Source: an uncultured Candidatus Saccharibacteria bacterium (GTDB taxonomy: Bacteria > Patescibacteriota > Minisyncoccia > Phycocordibacterales > UBA2100). Taken from it: a stretch of DNA of 64,000 nucleotides. Below, in pieces: positions 3,540 to 57,041 of this stretch. The notes beneath the pieces were generated by a model, which made no database searches, was not told the DNA's origin, and saw nothing but the letters and a program-made list of their open reading frames with translations. Location: assembly GCA_964512835.1 (NCBI GenBank), contig CAZELA010000003.1, forward strand, positions 152,098 through 216,097, read 5' to 3'. Both the position numbers and the translations under genes were made by a program. Each line of letters opens with the position of its first letter. The first letter of the stretch is position 1.

Positions 3540-3960
3540 TAGAATCTGTGACCGATAGACGGAGCAAATGTCCGTTATCCACTTATCCCCATAAGTTATC
3601 CACAGTACTGTCCTTTACGACTTCCTAAAGGACAGTATTATTACCAACGGTGGTTCTTTAAGACTTCTCATTTGATTCTGAAAATAAATGAGATTCATAG
3701 GTACAAAGTACTCTCGCCTACAAAAATAAAGATGCCTCCGCATCTATTGGAGAAAAAGTACGTTTGTCCGAAGGATATCTCAAAGTTCTTTAAAAAGAAT
3801 GGAATGGGAGTCAAAAAAATGTCGCCAGACGGCGGCAATCCGACTAGAGAGAAACGGGTTGCTACGTCTGGCGATATCTTTTTTAAACTTCATATCCGAA
3901 GCGTAGCTTCGGGCATGAATGGAGTTTAAAAAAGATATGGCCGGAGCCGGGACCCAGTGC
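3540..3960. promoter_or_regulatory. AT-rich non-coding region with DnaA-box-like motifs
   Basis: Perfect TTATCCACA at 3596-3604 plus TTATCCACT; 36-bp element at 3570-3605 that recurs inverted at 7544-7577; 10-bp perfect hairpin at 3608-3635; strongly AT-rich relative to the ~58% GC background. Confidence 0.5.
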
Positions 3961-4115
3961 CGATTTAAGGCATTGGGCGGCGAGGCTGGGGCCGGCGGGC
4001 ATTTTGCGGAGCAAAATGAACCGTGGCTCTTTTTTGGGTCCTCTCGGCGAAGTCCAAAGCCCCTATAAACGAGTGCAAGAGGCCGCTATCTGCGGCCTTT
4101 TGCATACATATGTAT

Positions 4116-5594
4116 TTAATTGACGTGGTGTTTTTTTCGGAGTTCCGCTATGGCGGCGGCATCCTCCTCGGCGCGACGGTCCTTCCCCTGCTCCCCCAAC
4201 GTGCGCAGCTCTTCGTTGTTCATGGTGCGCATTTCCGTTGCGCGGGATTCCAAATATTCGGCTGTATTCCTAGTTGGTTCGTCTAAAACCTCTTCGAGCA
4301 ATGCATGCAGTATCCAGCCGATGCGCGGACCGGCAGGCTCCCCCATCGCGATCAATCGTGAGCCGTCGATCTTGAGCATGCCGACCGAAACAGGGTCGCG
4401 CATTGCCTCGTCAATCATCGACATGTACTTACGGAGCCGGAATGGGTGCGCCTTGGGCCGACCCGTGCCGATGCGGTCGCACACACGCAAGTTCAGGAGA
4501 TCTGCGATGTTCTCCTGCCCTACGCGCGCGATCAAGCGACGTACCGCTGAGAGCGTGATCTGGTCGGGATCCGAGAAAAACATGTGCACCCGAACGAGCA
4601 GAGAGACCTTTTCAATGATTTCCTTGGGGTATTTCAAATCAGCAAGGATACGTTTGGCCATCTTTGCGGACACAACATCGTGTCCATGGAAGGTCCAATC
4701 ACCCTTTTCGTCTGACCATTCTCGCGTCGCGGGTTTGCCGATGTCGTGCAAAAGCGCAGCCAGGCGCACATCGAGCGCCCATCCCTGATCTGCTGCATGC
4801 TGCATGCTGCGGAGCAGGTGCTCAAATACATCGAATGAGTGGGCCTGGTTTTGGGCGCATCCAATACCCTCTTCGAGCTCCGGTATCACATACGTGAGGA
4901 CGCCGAGCTTCTGCGCCATATAAATGGCCTGTAACGGCCGGTCCGAGAGGAGAATGCGCGAGAATTCGTCGCGTATACGCTCTTTTGATATTTTGCCGAG
5001 CTGTGCGGCATTTGCTGCAATCCCTGCCATCGTAGTGCCGTCGATCGCAAAATCGAGCTCCGCAGCAATGCGGATAGCGCGCAACATGCGCAGGGCGTCT
5101 TCCTCGAAGCGCTTGTGTGCGTCCCCCACTGTTACCAGCACTTTGCGCTCTATATCGGTCTTTCCCTCGTGCTCGTCGATGAGTTCTCCTGTTGATGGGT
5201 CGTACGCGATTGCATTGATCGTAAAGTCGCGACGTTCCAGGTCGTCGTGGAGCGTGTCGCTGAACCGAACCTCGTCGGGGTGTCGGGCGTTACTGTACTT
5301 TCCCTCGACGCGGTACGGCGTGATCTCGACGACTTTGAGTTTCGGGTTTTCCGACTGCGTCACGACGCCAACCGTGCCGTAGTCGTTCTCGTAAAACGAT
5401 TCTTCGTACAGAGACTGGATTTGTTCCGGGCGTGCATTGGTTGTGATGTCCCAGTCTTTGGGCTCTCGACCGATCAAGAGGTCGCGTACACAACCGCCGA
5501 CAAGATACGCTTCGTACCCTGCCTGCTTCAGTGTCGCGTGAATATCGAGGATTTCCTGCGGAACAAGAAGCTCCTTGTGTGTCATGTGAGACAT
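4116..5594 (-). CDS. cca: CCA-adding tRNA nucleotidyltransferase with HD domain
   Basis: Pol-beta nucleotidyltransferase N-terminus (GGCVRDLLIGREPKDWDITT) and HD domain (HDIGK) in a ~490-aa protein. Confidence 0.85.
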   Translation of the reverse strand: MSHMTHKELLVPQEILDIHATLKQAGYEAYLVGGCVRDLLIGREPKDWDITTNARPEQIQSLYEESFYENDYGTVGVVTQSENPKLKVVEITPYRVEGKYSNARHPDEVRFSDTLHDDLERRDFTINAIAYDPSTGELIDEHEGKTDIERKVLVTVGDAHKRFEEDALRMLRAIRIAAELDFAIDGTTMAGIAANAAQLGKISKERIRDEFSRILLSDRPLQAIYMAQKLGVLTYVIPELEEGIGCAQNQAHSFDVFEHLLRSMQHAADQGWALDVRLAALLHDIGKPATREWSDEKGDWTFHGHDVVSAKMAKRILADLKYPKEIIEKVSLLVRVHMFFSDPDQITLSAVRRLIARVGQENIADLLNLRVCDRIGTGRPKAHPFRLRKYMSMIDEAMRDPVSVGMLKIDGSRLIAMGEPAGPRIGWILHALLEEVLDEPTRNTAEYLESRATEMRTMNNEELRTLGEQGKDRRAEEDAAAIAELRKKHHVN

Positions 5595-5699
5595 TGTAAC
5601 TGGTTTTAGATACGGGATTCGGCCAAGAGCTCAAAACTTTGCCGTCGCAAAGTTTTTCCTCTCGGCCCTACTCACCCATCCCCGCCTACCGGCGGGTCC

Positions 5700-5730
5700 C
5701 CAGGGTTCGTTTTCGAATCCCTCCGGGAGG
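5700..5730 (+). repeat. inverted partial copy of the tRNA-Arg T-arm/acceptor 3' end
   Basis: GGGTTCG-ttttCGAATCCCTCCGGGAG matches the 3' 25 nt of the adjacent tRNA-Arg in the opposite orientation. Confidence 0.5.
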
Positions 5731-5779
5731 CTACTAAATCATAGTCGCATAACGCTTCGCGTTATGCTCGTTGATTTTG

Positions 5780-5851
5780 TGCTCCCGGAGGGATTCGAAC
5801 CCCCAATAACAGTTCCGAAGACTGTCGTGATATCCATTTCACTACGAGAGC
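5780..5851 (-). tRNA. tRNA-Arg (anticodon UCG)
   Basis: 72-nt cloverleaf read on the minus strand: acceptor GCTCTCG/CGGGAGC, anticodon stem ACAGT/ACTGT with loop CTTCGGA, T-loop TTCGAAT; CCA not encoded. Confidence 0.8.
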
Positions 5852-5908
5852 AGTGGGGGTATCTTACCCTATCTTGAGCATTTTTAATACGGAGAATCGG
5901 TCAAGCGC

Positions 5909-6134
5909 TCGAAAAGTCCCCGGCCGGGACTTTTCTCCGCCTGACCACGCTCGGGCATCCCCGCGTGCTCGCGGGGCCCTGCCCTCGCCTTCGATTCTCC
6001 TCCCACCGCCTAAAACGAAAGAGAGGGGCTCCTCGCCCCTCTCTTTCGTTTTAGGTGCGGGTTGGCTCCTACGGAGCCCCCGCACGTCGTCGGAACGAAA
6101 AGAGAGAGCCTGCTGGCTCTCTCTTTTCGTTCCT
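5909..6134. repeat. cluster of four long perfect stem-loops between tRNA-Arg and tRNA-Gly
   Basis: 10-bp hairpin at 5909-5934; 21-bp perfect stem at 6009-6055 (CCTAAAACGAAAGAGAGGGGC/GCCCCTCTCTTTCGTTTTAGG); hairpin at 6056-6084; 19-bp perfect stem at 6092-6134; the two long stems are sequence-related. Confidence 0.7.
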
Positions 6135-6139
6135 CCTAG

Positions 6140-6210
6140 TGCGGGTACGGAGAATCGAACTCCGATCTCCACCTTGGCAAGGTGGCGTTCTACCATTAAA
6201 CCATGCCCGC
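6140..6210 (-). tRNA. tRNA-Gly (anticodon GCC)
   Basis: 71-nt cloverleaf GCGGGCA...TACCCGCA, anticodon loop TTGCCAA, T-loop TTCGATT. Confidence 0.85.
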
Positions 6211-6376
6211 TTATCTTGATTGTCTACCCTACTCTCTACGTGGACGTATCATCCACCGAAACCTGCCGCATTTTGTTTTGTCACTGCTACTTCCCTGCTT
6301 TCGCAAGACTGAACCGCTGGATTATACAGCAGGAATGACGCTCAGCAATAAGCTGCGCTGCATTTCCGACTCTATG

Positions 6377-7369
6377 CTACTTGCTTTCGGTCTTTGTCTC
6401 CTCCGTCTTGGTAACGGTGGTCGTCTTTTTGTTCGGTACAGGCGAAGCGGGTGGCAGCATGACCGGTCCTGTCCGATAGGCGCTGTAGAGTCCTATAGCG
6501 GCCGCTACGAGCAGGATCACAGGAATGAAGTAGCTGAGGCGGCAGTCGAGAGCGAACTTCCAGAATACGAGCAGTATTACGAGCGGCACGCCGATCAGTA
6601 CTGCGGGCAACGCGCTGTGTCGCAGGGCGAGCGCCGGCTCTGAAAGGCCTACGAAGGCCGTGATCACAAAGAAGATCGCAAGCAGGATGAACCACAGCTG
6701 GTACGAACCGTTCTTCGTGCACATCTTCGCAACCAAGTTACCGATTGTCGTAGAAGTTGCCGACGTCGAACCGACGATCGGGGTGTTCGTGTGGCTGCCG
6801 GCCACAGATCCCTTGGAGCCCCCGGCATTCTGGTGGGCACCGGACACTGAGCCGGTTCCCGATACTCCCCCATTGTCTGATCCTGTATCAGTCGGCACCG
6901 TAGGCTGCTGTACCGGGTTCGATGTCTCAATATTCCCCGCTGCATCGGTTGTGAACGAGACTGTTGAAAGGCATACCGGGGCGTTCGGCAGCGCCGACAT
7001 CATGGTAATCGTGACCGGCACAATACCGTTCACTGGCACTGTAGTGTCCACATGAAGGCGGAGTGACCCGTCCGTATCAATATCGCGGGTCATGTAGTTG
7101 AACGGGATCGATACATCCCCTGCTACCCCGACAAGGCCCACGTATGAAGAGTCGGATAAGACTACGTCAAACGACTGCAGCTCGCCTTCATAAATGTACG
7201 GGGTGACCGATTTCACGAACAACGGTGCGCAGGTGTTTGAGCCTGGCGGCAAAACCTGCTTTGTAAGGACCGACGCAGATCCTGCAGCGGCAAGAGACGG
7301 CGTAGCGAGCAGCGCCACGGCAGTTATGGTTCCGACAATGCCTCGCGCGACGCGGGATGCGGTGTTCAT
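6377..7369 (-). CDS. hypothetical secreted/membrane-anchored protein
   Basis: N-terminal signal peptide, Ser/Thr/Gly-rich extracellular region, C-terminal transmembrane helices. Confidence 0.5.
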   Translation of the reverse strand: MNTASRVARGIVGTITAVALLATPSLAAAGSASVLTKQVLPPGSNTCAPLFVKSVTPYIYEGELQSFDVVLSDSSYVGLVGVAGDVSIPFNYMTRDIDTDGSLRLHVDTTVPVNGIVPVTITMMSALPNAPVCLSTVSFTTDAAGNIETSNPVQQPTVPTDTGSDNGGVSGTGSVSGAHQNAGGSKGSVAGSHTNTPIVGSTSATSTTIGNLVAKMCTKNGSYQLWFILLAIFFVITAFVGLSEPALALRHSALPAVLIGVPLVILLVFWKFALDCRLSYFIPVILLVAAAIGLYSAYRTGPVMLPPASPVPNKKTTTVTKTEETKTESK

Positions 7370-7429
7370 ATAGGAATGTCGACACCCTATTCTTTGTGCA
7401 CCGTCGCGTCAAGCGGTCGCAAGCCACAT

Positions 7430-7740
7430 TGGAAGCGCTGTCAAATCTGTGTTATAGCGCTCAACAGAGCCATTTAATCGGACATCGGCGCGTGTCCAAA
7501 ATGTACGTTTTACATGGACAAAACGTCAAAAATCATCAAATCTGGGGATAACTTATGGGTATAAGTGGATAACGGACGGAATTCAGCAGAAAAATGCGTC
7601 CGTGATTAATTGTTAATATGGCTTAACAGAGCCATATTATGACGCGCGCGTTAAAGACGCGTAATTATCCCCAAAGCCCACTGAATACGTTTCATTAGTA
7701 ACATAGGTGGCTCGGGTTTCCCGTGAAATGGGTATACTAC
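7430..7740. promoter_or_regulatory. AT-rich region with DnaA-box-like motifs and iteron-like direct repeats
   Basis: Inverted copy (7544-7577) of the 3570-3605 element; TTATCCCCA and TTATCCACT boxes; ~28-bp direct repeat GTTAnnnnGCTnAACAGAGCCATnTnAT at 7451-7478 and 7612-7640. Confidence 0.5.
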
Positions 7741-7744
7741 GTAC

Positions 7745-8140
7745 ATGGCCGCCTATTCAAAGCGGAGACAGTTGGGTAACCAAGGAGAGGATATTGCGTG
7801 CCAGTATCTTACGAGAAAGGGTTTTGCTGTGATCGAGCGAAACTTCCTGCGTCCTTGGGGAGAGGTCGACGTTATATGTAGGCTTGGTGATCAGATGCGC
7901 TTTATCGAGGTGAAGACCATTTCACGTGCAACGTCCACGAGCGAGGGTTCACGTGGAACACCGAATATGACGGCCGAGGATCATGTGCATCCCGCCAAAC
8001 TGCAACGGCTCGCTCGTACCGTCGAGACATATATGGCAGACATACCGGGCGATATCGACTATCAAATCGATTTGGTTACGGTAGAGCTCGATATGAAGAC
8101 GCGAACTGCCAAATGTAAGCTCTACGAACAAATCTTGTAG
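7745..8140 (+). CDS. YraN family (UPF0102) predicted endonuclease
   Basis: GxxGEDIAxxYLxxKGFxVIERNF...GEVDVI...FIEVK pattern typical of UPF0102. Confidence 0.7.
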   Translation: MAAYSKRRQLGNQGEDIACQYLTRKGFAVIERNFLRPWGEVDVICRLGDQMRFIEVKTISRATSTSEGSRGTPNMTAEDHVHPAKLQRLARTVETYMADIPGDIDYQIDLVTVELDMKTRTAKCKLYEQIL

Positions 8141-8385
8141 GAAAGATGCCATTCAAAGCGGCAATGTCCGTTAAAAGTGTCCTATAAGGCCTTAATTTGT
8201 CCTATAGGACACGTGGAGGGTGGGGGACGCGTGTTTCCTCGAGTGCACGAACTCGTTGCGTAAATGTTGATATATTCGGTCGTGTGGGTGTATGCAGACT
8301 GCCGTGAGGGCGTTACTGTCTATTTTTTTCAGTGCGCCAATGGCCGCACTCAGTTTTCTTGGTATCAGGGGAAGTGAGCTTTTTC

Positions 8386-8430
8386 AGGGTGCCGAGAATC
8401 GAACGCGGTCTACTTAGTCCCATAAGCTCT
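8386..8430 (-). repeat. partial tRNA-Pro-like 3' fragment
   Basis: GGGACTAAGTAGACCGCGTTCGATTCTCGGCACCC resembles the anticodon-to-3' portion of the adjacent tRNA-Pro but lacks a 5' half. Confidence 0.5.
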
Positions 8431-8436
8431 CTTCTT

Positions 8437-8507
8437 TCGGGGCGCCGAGAATCGAACTCGGTCTACATGGTCCCAAACCATGCGTACTACCGGTATACTA
8501 CGCCCCG
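8437..8507 (-). tRNA. tRNA-Pro (anticodon UGG)
   Basis: Acceptor CGGGGCG/CGCCCCG, anticodon stem CATGG/CCATG with loop TTTGGGA, T-arm CCGAG-TTCGATT-CTCGG. Confidence 0.8.
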
Positions 8508-8651
8508 AAACAAGAGACCTTAGCCAGGCGTGCTACCGCCGATTAATGTATAGGCTACGTCCCGTTATTCAGCTGTGGTGTTTCGTGCCGTGGCGCGTTA
8601 CACGTAAAACCTCCTGAACCTCAGGATACTAGCACGCTTTGGACGGGGGAG

Positions 8652-9815
8652 TTACCGGCCCGTCAGTGCGGCAATAAGCTTTTGGGCGAGCGCGGCCGCC
8701 TCGGGGCGAAACGCATCAGCCATCACTTTTGGATCCTGCGCAAGGGTTTCGGCGAGTGTACGGCCGGTCAGAGCGTTCATGTCTCGACTTATGTATGCGG
8801 TCGTTATGGCATGCAGATCGCGCGCTGATGTCGTGGGTTCTGCGCTCGTCGTCGTAATTATGCCGATTAGCCGGCCCCACTGGTTAACAACACCGCCGCC
8901 CGACGAGCCACTCTGTGCACCGATGACACCGCCGAGCGATAGTGCATCGGCAGATCCGCTGGTGAATGTCATCAGTCGACCGATCGATGTGATCGAGGTG
9001 ACAGGATACAGGTTGTTTTGAACCATCCCGCTGCCGACAAATTCGACGGGGTAACTTGCAACAAGTGCCGCGTCGTCCACAAATCCAATCGCTTCACGAA
9101 TGTCCGGGACCACTTCGGGAAACGAGGAGGGGAGTGGTGTGCTGTCTGCCGAAGCCGCTATATAGAGCAGTGCATAATCGTGTTCGCCGGTGCTGAGTGC
9201 ATGCTGCAGGGTGATGTCGCGTGCGTGCGTGTTGATCCAGGGGGTTGGCACATAGAGAACGAGCGGCACCCACCGTGTCGTCGCCGGAGCGCCGGTGCGC
9301 ACGACACATTCGAGATCGCTCCGCCCGCTTTGTGCGATCAGTACATATTGAGCCACGTGGGCGTTCGTGAGAATTATGCCGCGCTCGTCTACGATCATGC
9401 CGCTACCGGTGATCGGACTAAGTGCGCCGCTTGCTCGTGTCTGACACAGAATATTGACGAGCGCGGATCGTGCGGAGAGATTCACTGATTCAAAGGGGAG
9501 TGGGGGAGTTTGATACGGGTGTTCGATGCGTGTTATTTCGTTCGGTGACGTAGTGGAAAATGTTGTCACAGGCGATTTCGTGGCTTGAATACTCGCTTTA
9601 TTAGACTTTTTCAAAGTTGTCGTTGCAGCCGATGTCGTAGCGTCCGCGTGTTGCGTTGTTATTGCTGTGCCCGTTGCCGAAATGAGCGGTAGCGGTTCAG
9701 GTGCCGTCGGACGAGCCGGTTCGTTCGCTTTGTGAGGATACGATATGAATACGAGCGTGATTGCCGGGACTATGAGTATCCACGGATGCGCACGTATGCT
9801 GCGCAGTATGTGCAT
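8652..9815 (-). CDS. membrane-anchored trypsin-like (S1 family) serine protease
   Basis: N-terminal TM helix, Thr/Ser-rich linker, catalytic triad contexts TNAHV, DYALL and GAQSGSSGGGV (GxSGG). Confidence 0.7.
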   Translation of the reverse strand: MHILRSIRAHPWILIVPAITLVFISYPHKANEPARPTAPEPLPLISATGTAITTQHADATTSAATTTLKKSNKASIQATKSPVTTFSTTSPNEITRIEHPYQTPPLPFESVNLSARSALVNILCQTRASGALSPITGSGMIVDERGIILTNAHVAQYVLIAQSGRSDLECVVRTGAPATTRWVPLVLYVPTPWINTHARDITLQHALSTGEHDYALLYIAASADSTPLPSSFPEVVPDIREAIGFVDDAALVASYPVEFVGSGMVQNNLYPVTSITSIGRLMTFTSGSADALSLGGVIGAQSGSSGGGVVNQWGRLIGIITTTSAEPTTSARDLHAITTAYISRDMNALTGRTLAETLAQDPKVMADAFRPEAAALAQKLIAALTGR

Positions 9816-9816
9816 G

Positions 9817-9887
9817 TGCGGAATAAGGGAATCGAACCCTTGCTCTCAGTTTGGAAAACTGATGTTCTACCATTAAACTAATTCCGC
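9817..9887 (-). tRNA. tRNA-Gly (anticodon UCC)
   Basis: 71-nt cloverleaf GCGGAAT...ATTCCGC, anticodon loop TTTCCAA, T-loop TTCGATT. Confidence 0.85.
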
Positions 9888-10062
9888 TTTTGTGAACTCG
9901 TGTTTTCCGTCAAAGCGGTACACAGGTTCGTCTGCCACGGAAACATGTCCGGAGACAGTCTGCCGCGATTGGCACACTTTACACGATTCCTTTCATACGC
10001 ACAAAACCCGCCGTTCGGCGGGTTTTGTGTTCTCGAGAATCACCTGTGCACGGGTGATTTCG

Positions 10063-10338
10063 CTACTTGACCGCGTCTTTCAGCGTCTTAGATGCGCGAA
10101 ACTTCGGAACTCGCATCGATTTGATCTGAATCGTTGCGCCGGTTCGCGGATTGCGACCGGTTCGTCCTGCGCGGGTCTTTGCTTCGAAAATGCCAAGGCC
10201 GGCGATTGAAACCTCTTCACCTTTTTTCAGGTTCTCGGTAATGCCGGAGATGATTGACTCGACAGCGCGCTCTGCATCTGCCTTCGTGCAACCGATCGTC
10301 GAGTGAACGCGATCGATCAAATCAGCTTTATTTGCCAT
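10063..10338 (-). CDS. hup: DNA-binding protein HU
   Basis: 91-aa protein with the HU/IHF fold signature (MANKADLIDRV...GLGIFEAKTRAGRTGRNPRTG). Confidence 0.9.
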   Translation of the reverse strand: MANKADLIDRVHSTIGCTKADAERAVESIISGITENLKKGEEVSIAGLGIFEAKTRAGRTGRNPRTGATIQIKSMRVPKFRASKTLKDAVK

Positions 10339-10492
10339 AGACTGTTCGTAACATTAGTAAACATTGAAAATGCTTGCTTTTTCGACCTATAGAACCATTT
10401 TGAGCCGTATTTTAGGGCTGTCAATCGTCGAAATCGAGTATCCACACATGTATCAGAAGGGCCCGGCGGAGTATTCCGTCGGGCCCGGGGTG

Positions 10493-11038
10493 TCAATTCA
10501 TCTCGTGGTTCGCCGTAAATGTGAGCCGGTACGCCGCAGAGACTGCGCCGATCAGGCGGTCGATCGTGTCGCCTTCGGCGGGCGAGACGGTCTTTAGTAT
10601 CAATCGTTCACGAGCGTTCCACATCTTCGCCTCGAGAGCTTCCGCAATCTCCTCCCGCACCTCGCCGATTGCGATAGTGTGTAGAAAGATAGCAACCGGA
10701 GTGCCGTCGAGTGCGACGGCGGTCACGACACCGTTGACCTGATGTTCGATGGCTTGCTGGTTAACGAAGAACTCCATCCGACGCGGCGACAGGTACACCC
10801 CCCAGCGTCGCTCGTTCGGATGATCCGCGCTGAGTGGCGGCATGGCATTGACCACGTTTCGGACCGCCAGCTCAACCCCGTCATCGAAGGTCTTTCCGAC
10901 CGGAAAGTCCGGCCGACGGACGAGCGAACATGAAAGTCCGTGGCATTGTTCGGCTAAGGTGGCGTCGAGCGTCTGCATCAGACGTTCGCCGCTGGTATCG
11001 TTCGGGAGCAGTTCAACAGTAATAAGCGCACGTGTCAT
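10493..11038 (-). CDS. hypothetical protein
   Basis: 181-aa ORF with reasonable composition; no recognisable motif. Confidence 0.4.
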   Translation of the reverse strand: MTRALITVELLPNDTSGERLMQTLDATLAEQCHGLSCSLVRRPDFPVGKTFDDGVELAVRNVVNAMPPLSADHPNERRWGVYLSPRRMEFFVNQQAIEHQVNGVVTAVALDGTPVAIFLHTIAIGEVREEIAEALEAKMWNARERLILKTVSPAEGDTIDRLIGAVSAAYRLTFTANHEMN

Positions 11039-11145
11039 TCGACATCCTCCTGAAAGTCTTGCTTCACCTTACTGAAACGCGAGACGGCGGTCAATAAAAA
11101 GAAAAAGAGGGGACATGCCCCTCTTTTTCTGCTGATATAAGCCGT

Positions 11146-12675
11146 TTATTTGGCGTACTCAATCACGCGGGTCTCGCGAATAACCGACACTTTGATCTCG
11201 CCGGGGTACTGGAGTTCCTTTTCGATCTTGTCTGCAATGTCGCGGGCAAGTTTGCGAGCTTCGAGGTCCGTCATTTCTTCCGGTCGAACCATCACGCGAA
11301 GTTCGCGGCCGGCAGCGATTGCGAAGCTCTTCTCGACACCTTTTTCGTTGTTAGCGATGGCCTCCAGGTCCTCAAGTCGCTTGATGTAGTTCTCGACGGA
11401 GTCTCGTCGTGAACCGGGGCGGCCGCCGGAGATAGCGTCTGCCACCTGCACAATCATGCTTTCGGGGGTTTCGTACGGGTATTCCTCGTGGTGGGCCTGC
11501 ATTGCCTTAATCACGAGCTCGTCGACGTTGAATTTCTGAAGAATGCGACGACCGATCTCAACGTGGGTGCCCGGAACCTCGTGGTCAACAGCTTTACCGA
11601 TATCGTGGAAGAGGGCTCCGGCTCGCGCAATCGCAGGGTCGGCACCGAGCTCCTCTGCAAGCATTGCGGCCAGGTGTGCCATCTCTACCGAGTGGTCGAG
11701 CACATTCTGTCCATAGCTCGTGCGGAAATACAGTCGCCCGAGGATCATGAGGAGCTTCGGGTCCATACCGGGCACTTTTGCATCGTAGGCAGCCTCAGCG
11801 CCCTTCTTCTTGATGATGTTGGTGATCTCTTGTTCAGCCTTTTGTACGGCCTCCTCGATCTTTGCAGGCTGAATGCGTCCGTCGAGAATAAGGTTCTCGA
11901 GTGCAATTCGCGCGATCTGTCGTCGGATAGGGTCGTACGACGAGAGGGTAAGCGTACCCGGCGTATCGTCGATGATGACGTCGACGCCGGTTGCCCGCTC
12001 GAACGAGCGGATGTTGCGGCCTTCCTTGCCGATGATTTTGCCCTTGATCTCCTCATTCGGGAGTGAAACGGTGGTTGCAAGCACATCCGAAACGACCGAA
12101 TTACCGAGACGATGTACGGCGGTCGTCAGGATCTCCTTGGCTCGCTTCTCTATCTTTTCATCGCCGGAGATCTCGAGTTTACGCATGCGACCTTCAAGGT
12201 CGTGCTCGTACTGCTTTTCGATGGACTTCATCAGTCCGTTCTTCGCCTCTTCCGCCGTGAGGCCTGCAACCTTTTCCAGCTTTTCCTGCTGCTCGCGGAT
12301 CAGTGCCTCAGCCTCCTCGCGGGCGCGGGCGACATCTTCGTTCTTTCGGTTGAGCGATTCCTGCTCGTTATCGAGATTCAGTTGGCGCTTATCGAGGAGC
12401 TCTTCCTTGCGGACGAGGCGTTCTTCGACCTGTTTGAGGTCGCGTTCACGCTCCTTGTGTTCGGTCGTCAGTTGCAGGACCTTTTCATCGGCTCTGGTCT
12501 GAGCGTCGTTGATAATTCCTTTCGCCTTTTCCTCGGCATCGAGCATCATCTGTCGGATCTGGAGTTCCATGGAACCCTTCTTACCGATACTGATGATGTA
12601 TCGGAGGAAGTATCCGAATCCAATGCCAATAGCGCCGGCTGCGGCGAGGAGGGCAAGAATAACTTTTAATGACAT
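11146..12675 (-). CDS. rny: ribonuclease Y
   Basis: N-terminal TM helix, coiled-coil, KH domain (KGKIIGKEGRNIR) and HD domain (LFHDIGK). Confidence 0.9.
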   Translation of the reverse strand: MSLKVILALLAAAGAIGIGFGYFLRYIISIGKKGSMELQIRQMMLDAEEKAKGIINDAQTRADEKVLQLTTEHKERERDLKQVEERLVRKEELLDKRQLNLDNEQESLNRKNEDVARAREEAEALIREQQEKLEKVAGLTAEEAKNGLMKSIEKQYEHDLEGRMRKLEISGDEKIEKRAKEILTTAVHRLGNSVVSDVLATTVSLPNEEIKGKIIGKEGRNIRSFERATGVDVIIDDTPGTLTLSSYDPIRRQIARIALENLILDGRIQPAKIEEAVQKAEQEITNIIKKKGAEAAYDAKVPGMDPKLLMILGRLYFRTSYGQNVLDHSVEMAHLAAMLAEELGADPAIARAGALFHDIGKAVDHEVPGTHVEIGRRILQKFNVDELVIKAMQAHHEEYPYETPESMIVQVADAISGGRPGSRRDSVENYIKRLEDLEAIANNEKGVEKSFAIAAGRELRVMVRPEEMTDLEARKLARDIADKIEKELQYPGEIKVSVIRETRVIEYAK

Positions 12676-48318: not shown

Positions 48319-48437
48319 AGTTATCCACATCAATCGGTCGCGGGCACGTTGCATAGCGATTGTTCGTGCAATACTACGCATACCACTTTCTCTCTAGTGG
48401 TGCGGTTTTCCTTTTATAGGGTAAGCACATTAGAGAG

Positions 48438-55555: not shown

Positions 55556-55586
55556 GAAAACCCCGGCCCAAAGCCGGGGTTTTCTA
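55556..55586. terminator. bidirectional terminator shared by tuf and the reverse transcriptase gene
   Basis: AAAACCCCGGCC-CAAA-GCCGGGGTTTTCT. Confidence 0.7.
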
Positions 55587-57041
55587 GTTGTTCTTAAATG
55601 CTACTTTGCGCGATTTACCGCGAATCTTCTCTCTGAGTTTTCGGGCATTTTTTACCGTTTTTATCTGCTCTTTAACCTCTGGGGCACTCAATTTTGACGC
55701 AACCACTCGTGAGTAGGCTAGGAAATTTTTCTTAGCGACACCGTACTTTGTATGTAAGTACTTTTTCGGCGCACCACTGCGCTTTTTCCTTGCAGCATTC
55801 TTCACTGATTTCTTCACCGCCTTATTCATCCTTCTCTGAAACTTCGCAATTGCGGCGTGACGTAGATAAACCTTCTGCCCGTCGGTCTGGATGCCAAGGT
55901 ATTGAACCGTTGCCTTCTTCATTGTTTCGGGATTTAGAATAGCCAAGCGCTCTTCAGTTCCGATGCAGTCGCGTCTTTCTGTTTTTTCCTTTTTTATAAC
56001 CAAAGCCTGCTCCTTTATCGCCTCGTATACGAAGTTCACAATTTGTGCAGCGTTCTGCGGCGAACACACAATCAGGATGTCGTCCGAGTATCGCCGATAG
56101 AGTCCATTTATCTTTCTCACGGCGGTTGCTACGGCGGCATCAAAGTCGAGCATGTACATGTTGGCCAATACACAACTAATAGGCGACCCCTGAGGAATTC
56201 CTTTGCTTTCCTTGTGAATCTCCTGTAAATGCTTTGAAATCACTTCGCGTTTGTATTCGGGGGCTGTAAATATTCGTGACCGACGTTTTTTCATGGCCTC
56301 ATCGGCGAACTTACGAATTCGTCCTTTTCGGACAAATGTAAAATTTGTGACCGCTCTAAAAACCTTGTAGTGGTCTTCAGGTAGTCGTTCATACCCCATT
56401 ATCTGACTCCATTTTGATTTAAGTTTACTGTGATCAATCTCCTCGAAGAATTTTGAGACATCTATCGCCAGAACACTACACGGTGCGTGAGCATCAATGA
56501 ACGCGAAAACTTCTCCTGCGAAATCAGCGTTACTTTTTCCTCTACCCGTCACAGGGCTCTTGATGCTTCTGTAAGCAATGACAGCATCACTCAGGTTCAT
56601 TTCGGAAAGTATCTTTTCGTAGCGTTCTGAAAGTTGCGCCGCGTACCATGAAAACACAAGCGCATCCTTGTGCGACGAAAAATCAATGGGTCTCTTTTTT
56701 ACAAAAATCTCACGTTTGCGCGCACCGGACTTCCTATTTTTTGGACGTCTGTAGCGACGGTCTCGTGTATCGATACGAATAAACGGGTAGAAGGAGTGAC
56801 GGGATACCGAATCCGGTGACAACATAGATTTCGTAATGTCTTCCTTCAGTCGAGATATCCGACTATCAAAATGCAAATATGTCCGCTTCGGTGGACGGTC
56901 TTGCCCGTCCCCGTTTAGTTTTTTTGATTCATTTACAAACCAACTGCTCCACCGGTCATTTTCCATATTCAAAGTAGACCCAACACCCCCTGGGTTCCTG
57001 GTACCTCGGGTTTTATCCCGTTGGCAGGGGTGTGGGCGCAA
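55584..57041 (-). CDS. free-standing reverse transcriptase (RNA-directed DNA polymerase), unclassified family
   Basis: RT motifs: LAIDVSKFFEEIDH (motif 2), GIPQGSPISCVLANMYM (motif 4, QGxxxSP), YRRYSDDILIVC (motif 5, YxDD), QYLGIQTDG (motif 7); highly basic C-terminal tail; start codon uncertain (first Met of the ORF given). Confidence 0.85.
   Translation of the reverse strand: MRPHPCQRDKTRGTRNPGGVGSTLNMENDRWSSWFVNESKKLNGDGQDRPPKRTYLHFDSRISRLKEDITKSMLSPDSVSRHSFYPFIRIDTRDRRYRRPKNRKSGARKREIFVKKRPIDFSSHKDALVFSWYAAQLSERYEKILSEMNLSDAVIAYRSIKSPVTGRGKSNADFAGEVFAFIDAHAPCSVLAIDVSKFFEEIDHSKLKSKWSQIMGYERLPEDHYKVFRAVTNFTFVRKGRIRKFADEAMKKRRSRIFTAPEYKREVISKHLQEIHKESKGIPQGSPISCVLANMYMLDFDAAVATAVRKINGLYRRYSDDILIVCSPQNAAQIVNFVYEAIKEQALVIKKEKTERRDCIGTEERLAILNPETMKKATVQYLGIQTDGQKVYLRHAAIAKFQRRMNKAVKKSVKNAARKKRSGAPKKYLHTKYGVAKKNFLAYSRVVASKLSAPEVKEQIKTVKNARKLREKIRGKSRKVAFKNN

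Follow-up and report, generated by a model that had tools for sequence, protein, structure and literature searches.

Characteristics of the locus and its inverted repeat

We analyzed a 64,000-nt stretch of DNA (the window) from contig CAZELA010000003.1 (assembly GCA_964512835.1, positions 152,098 to 216,097), filed under an uncultured Candidatus Saccharibacteria bacterium, and focused on two copies of a short sequence rich in DnaA-box-like 9-mers that face each other across a segment of 4 kb. A sequence-only reading of the window had proposed an inverted repeat of about 35 bp at this place, and the repeat proved to consist of two 36-nt arms, at 3570-3605 (arm A) and 7542-7577 (arm B), that are identical at 34 of 36 positions (94% complementary). 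The 32-nt core of the repeat occurs exactly twice in the window and in none of 100 shuffles. Pfam searches and tRNA calls gave the same content between the arms as that reading had described, namely cca, tRNA-Arg, a group of hairpins, tRNA-Gly, and a membrane protein gene, and Pfam also recovered the Xer-type recombinase gene that it had placed near the segment. The arms and the genes around them are as follows.

1318-2304: Phage_integrase/Xer-type gene (Pfam)
3570-3605, + strand: arm A; GTCCG, then boxes at 3575 (TTATCCACT), 3583 (TTATCCCCA), and 3596 (perfect TTATCCACA)
4116-5594, - strand: cca, CCA-adding tRNA nucleotidyltransferase (Pfam PolyA_pol, PolyA_pol_RNAbd, HD), convergent with the small RNA described below
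5779-5851, - strand: tRNA-Arg (TCG)
6139-6210, - strand: tRNA-Gly (GCC)
6377-7369, - strand: gene for a 330-aa predicted membrane protein without a Pfam match, its membrane nature read by eye from the translation
7542-7577, - strand: arm B; boxes at 7564 (TTATCCACT), 7556 (TTATACCCA, two mismatches), and 7543 (TTATCCCCA), with GTCCG at the yraN-side end
7745-8140, + strand: yraN (UPF0102 family, Pfam PF02021), divergent from the membrane protein gene and in conserved synteny

Both arms have the same layout, in which GTCCG is followed by three co-oriented DnaA-box-like 9-mers that start at 0, 8, and 21 nt. The expectation that each arm holds such 9-mers was therefore borne out, with three boxes per arm and a perfect match to the consensus at 3596. 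The window contains 12 DnaA boxes with at most one mismatch, and half of these (6/12) fall within the two intergenic regions that hold the arms. The two spacers had also been called unusually AT-rich: they are AT-rich in relative terms, at 45% GC compared to about 55% for the window, but several other spacers are similar at 44-49% and the 60-nt GC minima of the arm spacers (28-32%) are comparable to those of several other spacers in the window. Elsewhere in the window, a second perfect TTATCCACA is found at 48321-48329 (+ strand), 3 nt past a gene stop in the spacer before an 801-aa open reading frame (ORF) without a Pfam match; being single, this box could be a chance occurrence.

The boxes are conserved among relatives, the long repeat is not

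The cca product matched 35 loci in metagenome-assembled genomes of Candidatus Kaiserbacteria/Paceibacterota, members of the candidate phyla radiation (CPR), at 53-94% identity, and the window is accordingly assigned to a Candidatus Kaiserbacteria/Paceibacteria genome. The gene order common to these relatives is trypsin-like protease, yraN, site B, membrane protein, tRNAs, cca, small RNA, site A, xth, and xer, where sites A and B are the positions occupied by arms A and B. In nearly all 35 loci, DnaA boxes were present on one strand a few hundred nt past the cca stop and on the other strand 0.7-5 kb upstream. The promoter-proximal box of site A was found in 29 of 35 relatives (chance expectation 0.075 per locus), and a co-oriented pair of boxes was found at site B in 16 of 20. 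The invariant core of arm B was a set of three TGTGGATAA-type 9-mers in 0/8/21 spacing, which was seen in all 13 aligned genomes and in the 17 sequences of a second comparison.

The long repeat has a much narrower distribution than its boxes. It is present at both positions only in the closest relatives, and the 36-nt identity of the arms, which includes the non-box spacer bases, is not seen outside this subclade; relatives further away retain the boxes, one at site A and three at site B, without the long repeat. Because the extended identity is confined to the subclade and the distant genomes carry one box at A and three at B, the near-identity of the arms points to a recent copying or homogenization event in the direction from B to A. 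Judged from these comparisons, the inverted arrangement of the boxes appears to be ancient and the repeat as a repeat recent. The arms are most likely inverted because the two control regions in which they lie face each other.

Site A is locked to the predicted promoter of a small RNA

Directly downstream of arm A we identified a putative promoter and a putative small RNA gene.

3606-3641, + strand: predicted small RNA promoter; TGTCC at 3609-3613, -35 TTTACG at 3614-3619, a 16-nt spacer with an inverted GGACA, and -10 TATTAT at 3636-3641
3648-3890, + strand: small RNA of about 240 nt, with a predicted 5' end and a covariance-model match at 3698-3890

A consensus promoter scan also picked the same -35 (TTTACG) and -10 (TATTAT) elements, and a palindrome at 3606-3620/3623-3637 bears two GTCC half-sites. 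The arrangement was maintained with little change in 21 of 23 genomes, where site A reads (A/T)TATC(C/A)ACA, 3-5 nt, TGTCC, TTTACN as the -35 element, 16-17 nt, and TAnnnT as the -10 element. The small RNA would start near 3648, which would put the proximal box at about -52 to -44 and center the other two near -61 and -69.

Alignment of the xth-cca spacer revealed a strongly conserved block directly after the site A boxes. This block folds better than shuffled sequences (z = -6.4), and compensatory changes were seen in 12 of 33 predicted pairs among 9 genomes and in 10 of 21 pairs among 22 genomes. A covariance model found the RNA in 23 Kaiserbacteria-like genomes, always at a constant position with the exception of one distant relative (L023), and no Rfam family matched it at either gathering or permissive thresholds. 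Given the covariation, the covariance-model matches, and the fold z-score, we consider it a real and previously undescribed small RNA on the strength of comparative sequence analysis. A U run comes after its long terminator hairpin (3822-3883), and the RNA also has a C-rich loop (CCUCC/CCUCU) and a hairpin at the 5' end. In the 5' hairpin the pairing is kept while the stem sequence varies among genomes, as read by eye from the folds; RNAalifold did not call this hairpin.

The exceptional genome was informative with respect to the relationship between box and RNA. In L023 the small RNA lies upstream of cca, with a perfect box about 119 nt upstream of the RNA. Since the displaced RNA has retained a perfect box, the box appears to belong to the RNA gene. 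In the same locus (8428-11800), cca is flipped with respect to the sequence on either side, and directly past cca stand four DnaA boxes.

Several other traits of this region were observed. The CCUCC/CCUCU hairpin loop resembles an anti-Shine-Dalgarno sequence, and the apical loop of the RNA is invariant and A/G-rich (UAGAGAGAAA). Two mutually exclusive pairings, 3813-3831/3865-3883 and 3867-3893/3919-3945, overlap the terminator (3813-3945), and the sequence from 3891 to 4115 is highly variable among relatives. An 85-aa ORF at 3672-3929 was rejected as coding, as its indels among relatives are not multiples of three.

Site B keeps a constant spacing to the predicted yraN promoter

Arm B is located in a divergent spacer, with the membrane protein, tRNA, and cca genes leading leftward and yraN leading rightward. 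The elements identified around it are listed below.

7384-7412, - strand: predicted promoter of the membrane protein gene; -35 TTGACG at 7412-7407, 17 nt, -10 TAGGGT at 7389-7384, with like blocks kept in a 13-genome alignment
7454-7478, + strand: direct-repeat copy 1, a degenerate palindrome with ATTTAAT after it, separated from copy 2 by arm B and seen in only some relatives
7598-7640, + strand: yraN control region; GTCCGTGA at 7598-7605, palindrome ATGGCT-N6-AGCCAT at 7618-7635, and -10-like TATTAT at 7635-7640
7665-7673, + strand: an extra DnaA-box-like 9-mer (TTATCCCCA) in the yraN leader, not kept in the 13-genome alignment
7717-7728: half-palindrome TTTCCCGTGAAA resembling parS and the Noc-binding site (NBS), 17 nt before the yraN start
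7920-7931 and 7945-7960: further parS-like copies inside yraN
8165-8212, + strand: third cluster of the motif GTCC[GT][AT]TA, including the perfect palindrome TGTCCTATAGGACA, without a DnaA box and kept after the yraN stop in relatives

On the yraN side of arm B, a GTCC(G/C)T(A/G)A site, the ATGGCT-N6-AGCCAT palindrome, and a -10-like (A/T)TTAT follow at fixed distances, and the interval from arm B to the promoter element (palindrome/-10) is fixed at 50-60 nt in most genomes. A promoter scan of this region returned TTAATA-16-TATTAT, and arm B would span about -105 to -70 relative to the yraN start predicted near 7647. On the opposite side, the predicted membrane protein promoter (7369-7412) would leave a leader of about 8 nt without a Shine-Dalgarno sequence.

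A direct repeat of about 28 bp in this spacer had been likened to iterons. It consists of two 25-nt copies with 80% identity that are 162 nt apart, the second copy being the palindrome/-10 unit of yraN. Iterons are a set of several regularly spaced 17-22-bp tandem repeats next to a rep gene; since only two imperfect copies of a promoter-associated unit are present and Pfam found no rep gene in the window, this idea was abandoned.

The motif GTCC[GT][AT]TA occurs 13 times in the window, and eight of these occurrences fall into three clusters, at site A (3569-3637), at site B (7598-7605), and just after the yraN stop (8165-8212). The same three clusters recur in relatives, and a second factor probably binds these sites. 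A transcript downstream of yraN could not be defined, as the alignment there is too divergent.

Sites resembling parS were also concentrated at this locus. With up to three mismatches to the 16-bp palindromic consensus TGTTTCACGTGAAACA, 71 matches were found across the loci compared to about two expected. The copies in the window are degenerate, but in relatives the corresponding place holds clusters of copies with 0-2 mismatches, and the more distant relatives carry five to seven near-perfect copies at the yraN position. We take the site at 7717-7728 to be a hybrid of parS and Noc-binding-site half-sites. A further palindrome, GTTACTTAAGTAAC, at 7688-7708 in the yraN leader (imperfect in the window: GTTTCATTAGTAAC) is nearly invariant among 13 genomes.

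The arms are probably DnaA operators outside the origin

Together, these patterns of conservation suggest that the arms are probably non-origin DnaA-box arrays in two facing control regions, where they would act as DnaA operators and possibly as DnaA sinks. Each arm has the makeup of such a cluster, with at least three close, consensus-like boxes in an intergenic region away from oriC, the non-origin status being drawn from the GC skew of a relative (L020, see below). Both sites also have the hallmark of a DnaA-regulated promoter, a box held at constant spacing from the predicted -35/-10 elements, which at site A is seen in the 21 of 23 genomes with constant box-to--35 spacing and at site B in the fixed 50-60 nt to the yraN promoter element. 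Of the interpretations that the sequence-only reading had offered, DnaA-regulated promoters is thus the one that gained support. In known DnaA-regulated promoters, such as those of dnaA and nrdAB in E. coli and of dnaA and sda in B. subtilis, boxes lie just upstream of or overlapping the -35 element and their occupancy sets promoter activity. The position of the box near the -35 element is alike here, but the targets are different, being a non-coding RNA and a UPF0102 gene.

We propose that ATP-DnaA would occupy the arrays as its level rises through the cell cycle, and that occupancy would either activate or repress the adjacent small RNA and yraN promoters. Replication status would in this way be linked to the small RNA as well as to yraN, and possibly also to the tRNA/cca unit. 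The arrays may also hold DnaA, as a sink, next to parS sites where ParB might be loaded, and a second factor would probably bind the interleaved GTCC[GT][AT]TA sites.

Several observations weigh against this proposal. The middle box is degenerate in both arms, and the box specificity ascribed to Kaiserbacteria DnaA relies on domain IV of DnaA being generally conserved. On the membrane-gene side of site B, no conserved promoter directly adjoins the boxes, the conserved one being about 130 nt away; a predicted TTGACG-18-TACATT promoter abutting arm B on this side was dropped from consideration as it is not conserved among relatives. The interleaved GTCC motif indicates that at least one other factor acts at the locus, and this factor could be the main regulator. 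Finally, parS sites next to DnaA boxes would also be expected of an origin region.

The closest analogue that we are aware of is found in B. subtilis, which has six DnaA-box clusters outside oriC, some of which regulate neighboring genes (PMC3245932). Like parS, these clusters are origin-proximal; their deletion advances initiation, which they restrain in synergy with Spo0J (PMC3245932). The resemblance lies in intergenic clusters of consensus boxes outside oriC (e.g., yydA-yycS, ywcI-vpr, and yqeG-sda; PMC3245932), some of which control adjacent promoters, which share a region with parS and are thought to keep DnaA from oriC. Unlike in B. subtilis, each cluster here has three boxes in fixed 0/8/21 spacing, two clusters are inverted and 4 kb apart, one of them is locked to a predicted small RNA promoter, GTCC[GT][AT]TA sites are interleaved, and the host is a CPR bacterium in which the clusters are known from sequence.

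In an alternative reading, the arrays are mainly a DnaA reservoir and chromosome-organization site that combines titration of the datA or B. subtilis cluster type with ParB-parS and has little direct effect on transcription. Clustered consensus boxes beside parS-like sites are what such a site would look like, arm B does not directly adjoin a -35 element, and in B. subtilis both the box clusters and parS are origin-proximal and act jointly on initiation (PMC3245932). We nevertheless consider this reading unlikely, as titration alone hardly explains the exact box-to--35 spacing at site A, the box traveled with the RNA in L023, and three boxes per site make for a small sink. Small non-origin box clusters of E. 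coli, datA and DARS1/DARS2 (the latter with three core boxes), modulate the nucleotide state or availability of DnaA, and both DARS and datA require particular box orientations and IHF/Fis sites. By comparison, all three boxes are co-oriented here, and no homology is implied.

A more elaborate possibility, to which we assign an equally low likelihood, is that the locus is a dedicated replication-control hub of Paceibacteria, in which DnaA bridges the two arrays to loop out the 4-kb segment, ParB sits at parS, the GTCC factor binds its sites, and the small RNA is DnaA-dependent. If so, the CCUCC loop of the RNA might relay replication status to translation or feed back on initiation. Control of replication and of the cell cycle is almost unstudied in the CPR (Patescibacteria), whose members have tiny genomes and are mostly uncultured. 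The locus combines DnaA boxes, parS-like sites, and putative operators in a hub that is conserved across a large Paceibacteria clade, and it would make a small RNA without an Rfam family a predicted member of the DnaA regulon.

The box arrangement recurs beside dnaA in unrelated bacteria

The 9-mers might instead be the sites of a different regulator, such as the putative GTCC[GT][AT]TA-binding factor, and resemble DnaA boxes by coincidence. GTCC abuts the first box in both arms, the three conserved GTCC clusters are confined to the hub, and the cluster at 8165-8212 has no DnaA box at all. However, what is conserved across relatives is the DnaA consensus TTATCCACA itself, and the three-box arrangement (tri-box) is not private to this locus. 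When metagenomes were scanned for the 0/8/21 tri-box, 120 loci (L036-L155) from many unrelated taxa came up, and in at least 19 of the 120 the tri-box lay within about 1.2 kb of a DnaA signature, as read from tabulated positions. In one of these loci, two tri-boxes come after dnaA, and past a very AT-rich tract lie two unannotated ORFs of dnaN/recF-like length. The form TTATCCAC-(A/T)TATCCAC-N5-TTATCCACA is widespread in unrelated bacteria and often stands directly beside dnaA, so that the tri-box looks like a common building block of origins or dnaA promoters.

Because the same geometry occurs at genuine dnaA loci, these findings lend indirect support to DnaA as the protein that would bind the arms, and we regard a non-DnaA reader of the boxes as improbable. 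No Paceibacteria dnaA was found among the metagenome tri-box matches, and none of the proteins on the contigs that bear DnaA is related to those of the Kaiserbacteria loci; the single DnaA that was read through (L111) was proteobacterial-looking by eye.

The locus is probably not a chromosomal origin

The two box clusters could also be halves of a bipartite oriC, bridged by DnaA oligomers over the 4-kb cca segment, with unwinding in one of the AT-rich spacers and parS sites alongside. This had been the other half of the sequence-only interpretation of the boxes, and several features speak for it: the clusters are deeply conserved, their geometry is that of dnaA-linked tri-boxes elsewhere, parS-like sites are adjacent, and both spacers are among the more AT-rich of the window. 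Bipartite origins are also known from H. pylori (oriC1-dnaA-oriC2) and B. subtilis (incAB-dnaA-incC), which likewise have two box clusters with a gene between them that DnaA can bridge. In those origins the clusters flank dnaA, but here the intervening 4 kb hold cca, two tRNAs, and the gene for the 330-aa membrane protein, there is no skew switch, and no unwinding element is recognizable by inspection.

A cluster of DnaA boxes is present but does not coincide with a GC-skew extremum. Cumulative GC skew in the window rises monotonically, keeping one sign for 56 kb without a turn at the locus. Flanks of 7-10 kb on either side of the locus had the same skew sign in 16 of 19 relatives, including genomes in which both were negative, and decomposition by third codon position gave, from hand-computed flank means, roughly the same replication component (about +0.03) for the two flanks. 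The contig of one relative (L020, CAYTFU010000001.1) was also lengthened through three chained look-ups, which gave 51 kb around the locus, of which 10 kb lie toward yraN and 39 kb toward xth. In this contig, 19 of 21 windows of 2.5 kb shared the skew sign; one flank had a block value of -0.052 and the other had successive values of -0.031, -0.044, -0.038, and -0.068.

Gene content pointed in the same direction. That no dnaA is in view, as had been remarked before, held for the 30 large ORFs of the window searched with Pfam, and no DnaA signature was present in any frame. A six-frame search for GKTHL and DH[ST]T[VI] in the window and the 35 loci was likewise negative, the lone match (L021) being spurious. 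No dnaA, dnaN, or other origin-marker gene was encountered in the 56 kb that the window covers on one side of the locus or in the 39 kb that L020 covers on the other, and dnaA and dnaN were also absent from the 35 loci. No convincing DnaA-trio array or 13-mer-type unwinding element was seen by inspection after either arm, and in most relatives site A has a single box that is locked to the predicted promoter.

The origin more probably lies at some distance from the locus. The skew sign places it beyond the xth side, and in the L020 contig a virB4-like gene is found about 37 kb from the locus on this same, origin-ward side. There, a type IV secretion-like cluster (PrgI, TraC-like, VirB4-like) occurs together with ksgA about 30-40 kb from the cca hub (L162, 10001-20828). 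In Paceibacteria, dnaA, dnaN, rnpA, ksgA, and rpmH are commonly within 20 genes of virB4, according to a survey of Patescibacteria (PMC12102498). Based on the skew sign, the secretion cluster with ksgA, and the published link between virB4 and dnaA, the hub is probably origin-proximal. The walk toward the origin in the 51 kb of L020 did not reach dnaA, and the virB4-like gene was also the point where homologues in other genomes stopped. On a Kaiserbacteria contig of 481 kb, a response-regulator homologue that was tried as another route to the origin proved not to be syntenic.

Taken together, the unbroken skew, the roughly equal replication components, the missing marker genes, and the reported place of dnaA and dnaN near virB4 (PMC12102498) leave a bipartite chromosomal origin with little probability. 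A bipartite origin unlinked to dnaA and with an atypical skew signature would be a less likely extreme of the hub possibility considered above. The locus also carries a caution for automatic origin prediction in metagenome-assembled genomes: finding clusters of DnaA boxes next to parS is not enough to call oriC.

The segment is very unlikely to be a mobile or invertible element

The last alternative treats the two arms as terminal inverted repeats of a 4-kb segment that could be inverted or mobilized, with the Xer-type recombinase encoded nearby acting on it. The 36-nt inverted repeat and the tyrosine recombinase gene prompt this reading, but it is hardly tenable: cca and xth have the same relative orientation in 33 of 34 genomes; in the one exception (L023) cca alone is inverted, with breakpoints that are not at the arms and with the RNA and its box left in place; the contents are housekeeping genes in conserved synteny across 35 genomes rather than the patchy distribution of a transposon; the only recombinase at the locus is the xer gene, which is itself syntenic and conserved (56-93% identity); no transposase or invertase is present inside, and no target-site duplication was noted by eye; and the arms are built of transcription-factor-type 9-mers, namely DnaA boxes, which distant relatives keep without the long repeat.

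Other features of the region

The spacer between tRNA-Gly and tRNA-Arg (60% GC) holds two perfect hairpins of related sequence (AACGAAAGAGAG...), at 6009-6055 (21 bp) and 6092-6133 (19 bp). The 3' end of tRNA-Arg (5782-5799; T arm and acceptor) recurs in inverted form as a perfect 18-nt copy at 5712-5729, 52 nt downstream of the tRNA. This copy could pair with the 3' half of the tRNA in a read-through transcript, or it could be a remnant. Past yraN, a 40-nt partial copy of the 3' half of tRNA-Pro (35/40 identical; 8383-8422 compared to 8436-8475) lies immediately downstream of the tRNA-Pro gene and may be a remnant of an integration or duplication event. A reverse-transcriptase gene (RVT_1) at 55584-57041 (- strand), in the most AT-rich kilobase of the window (46% GC), may belong to a group II intron or retroelement.

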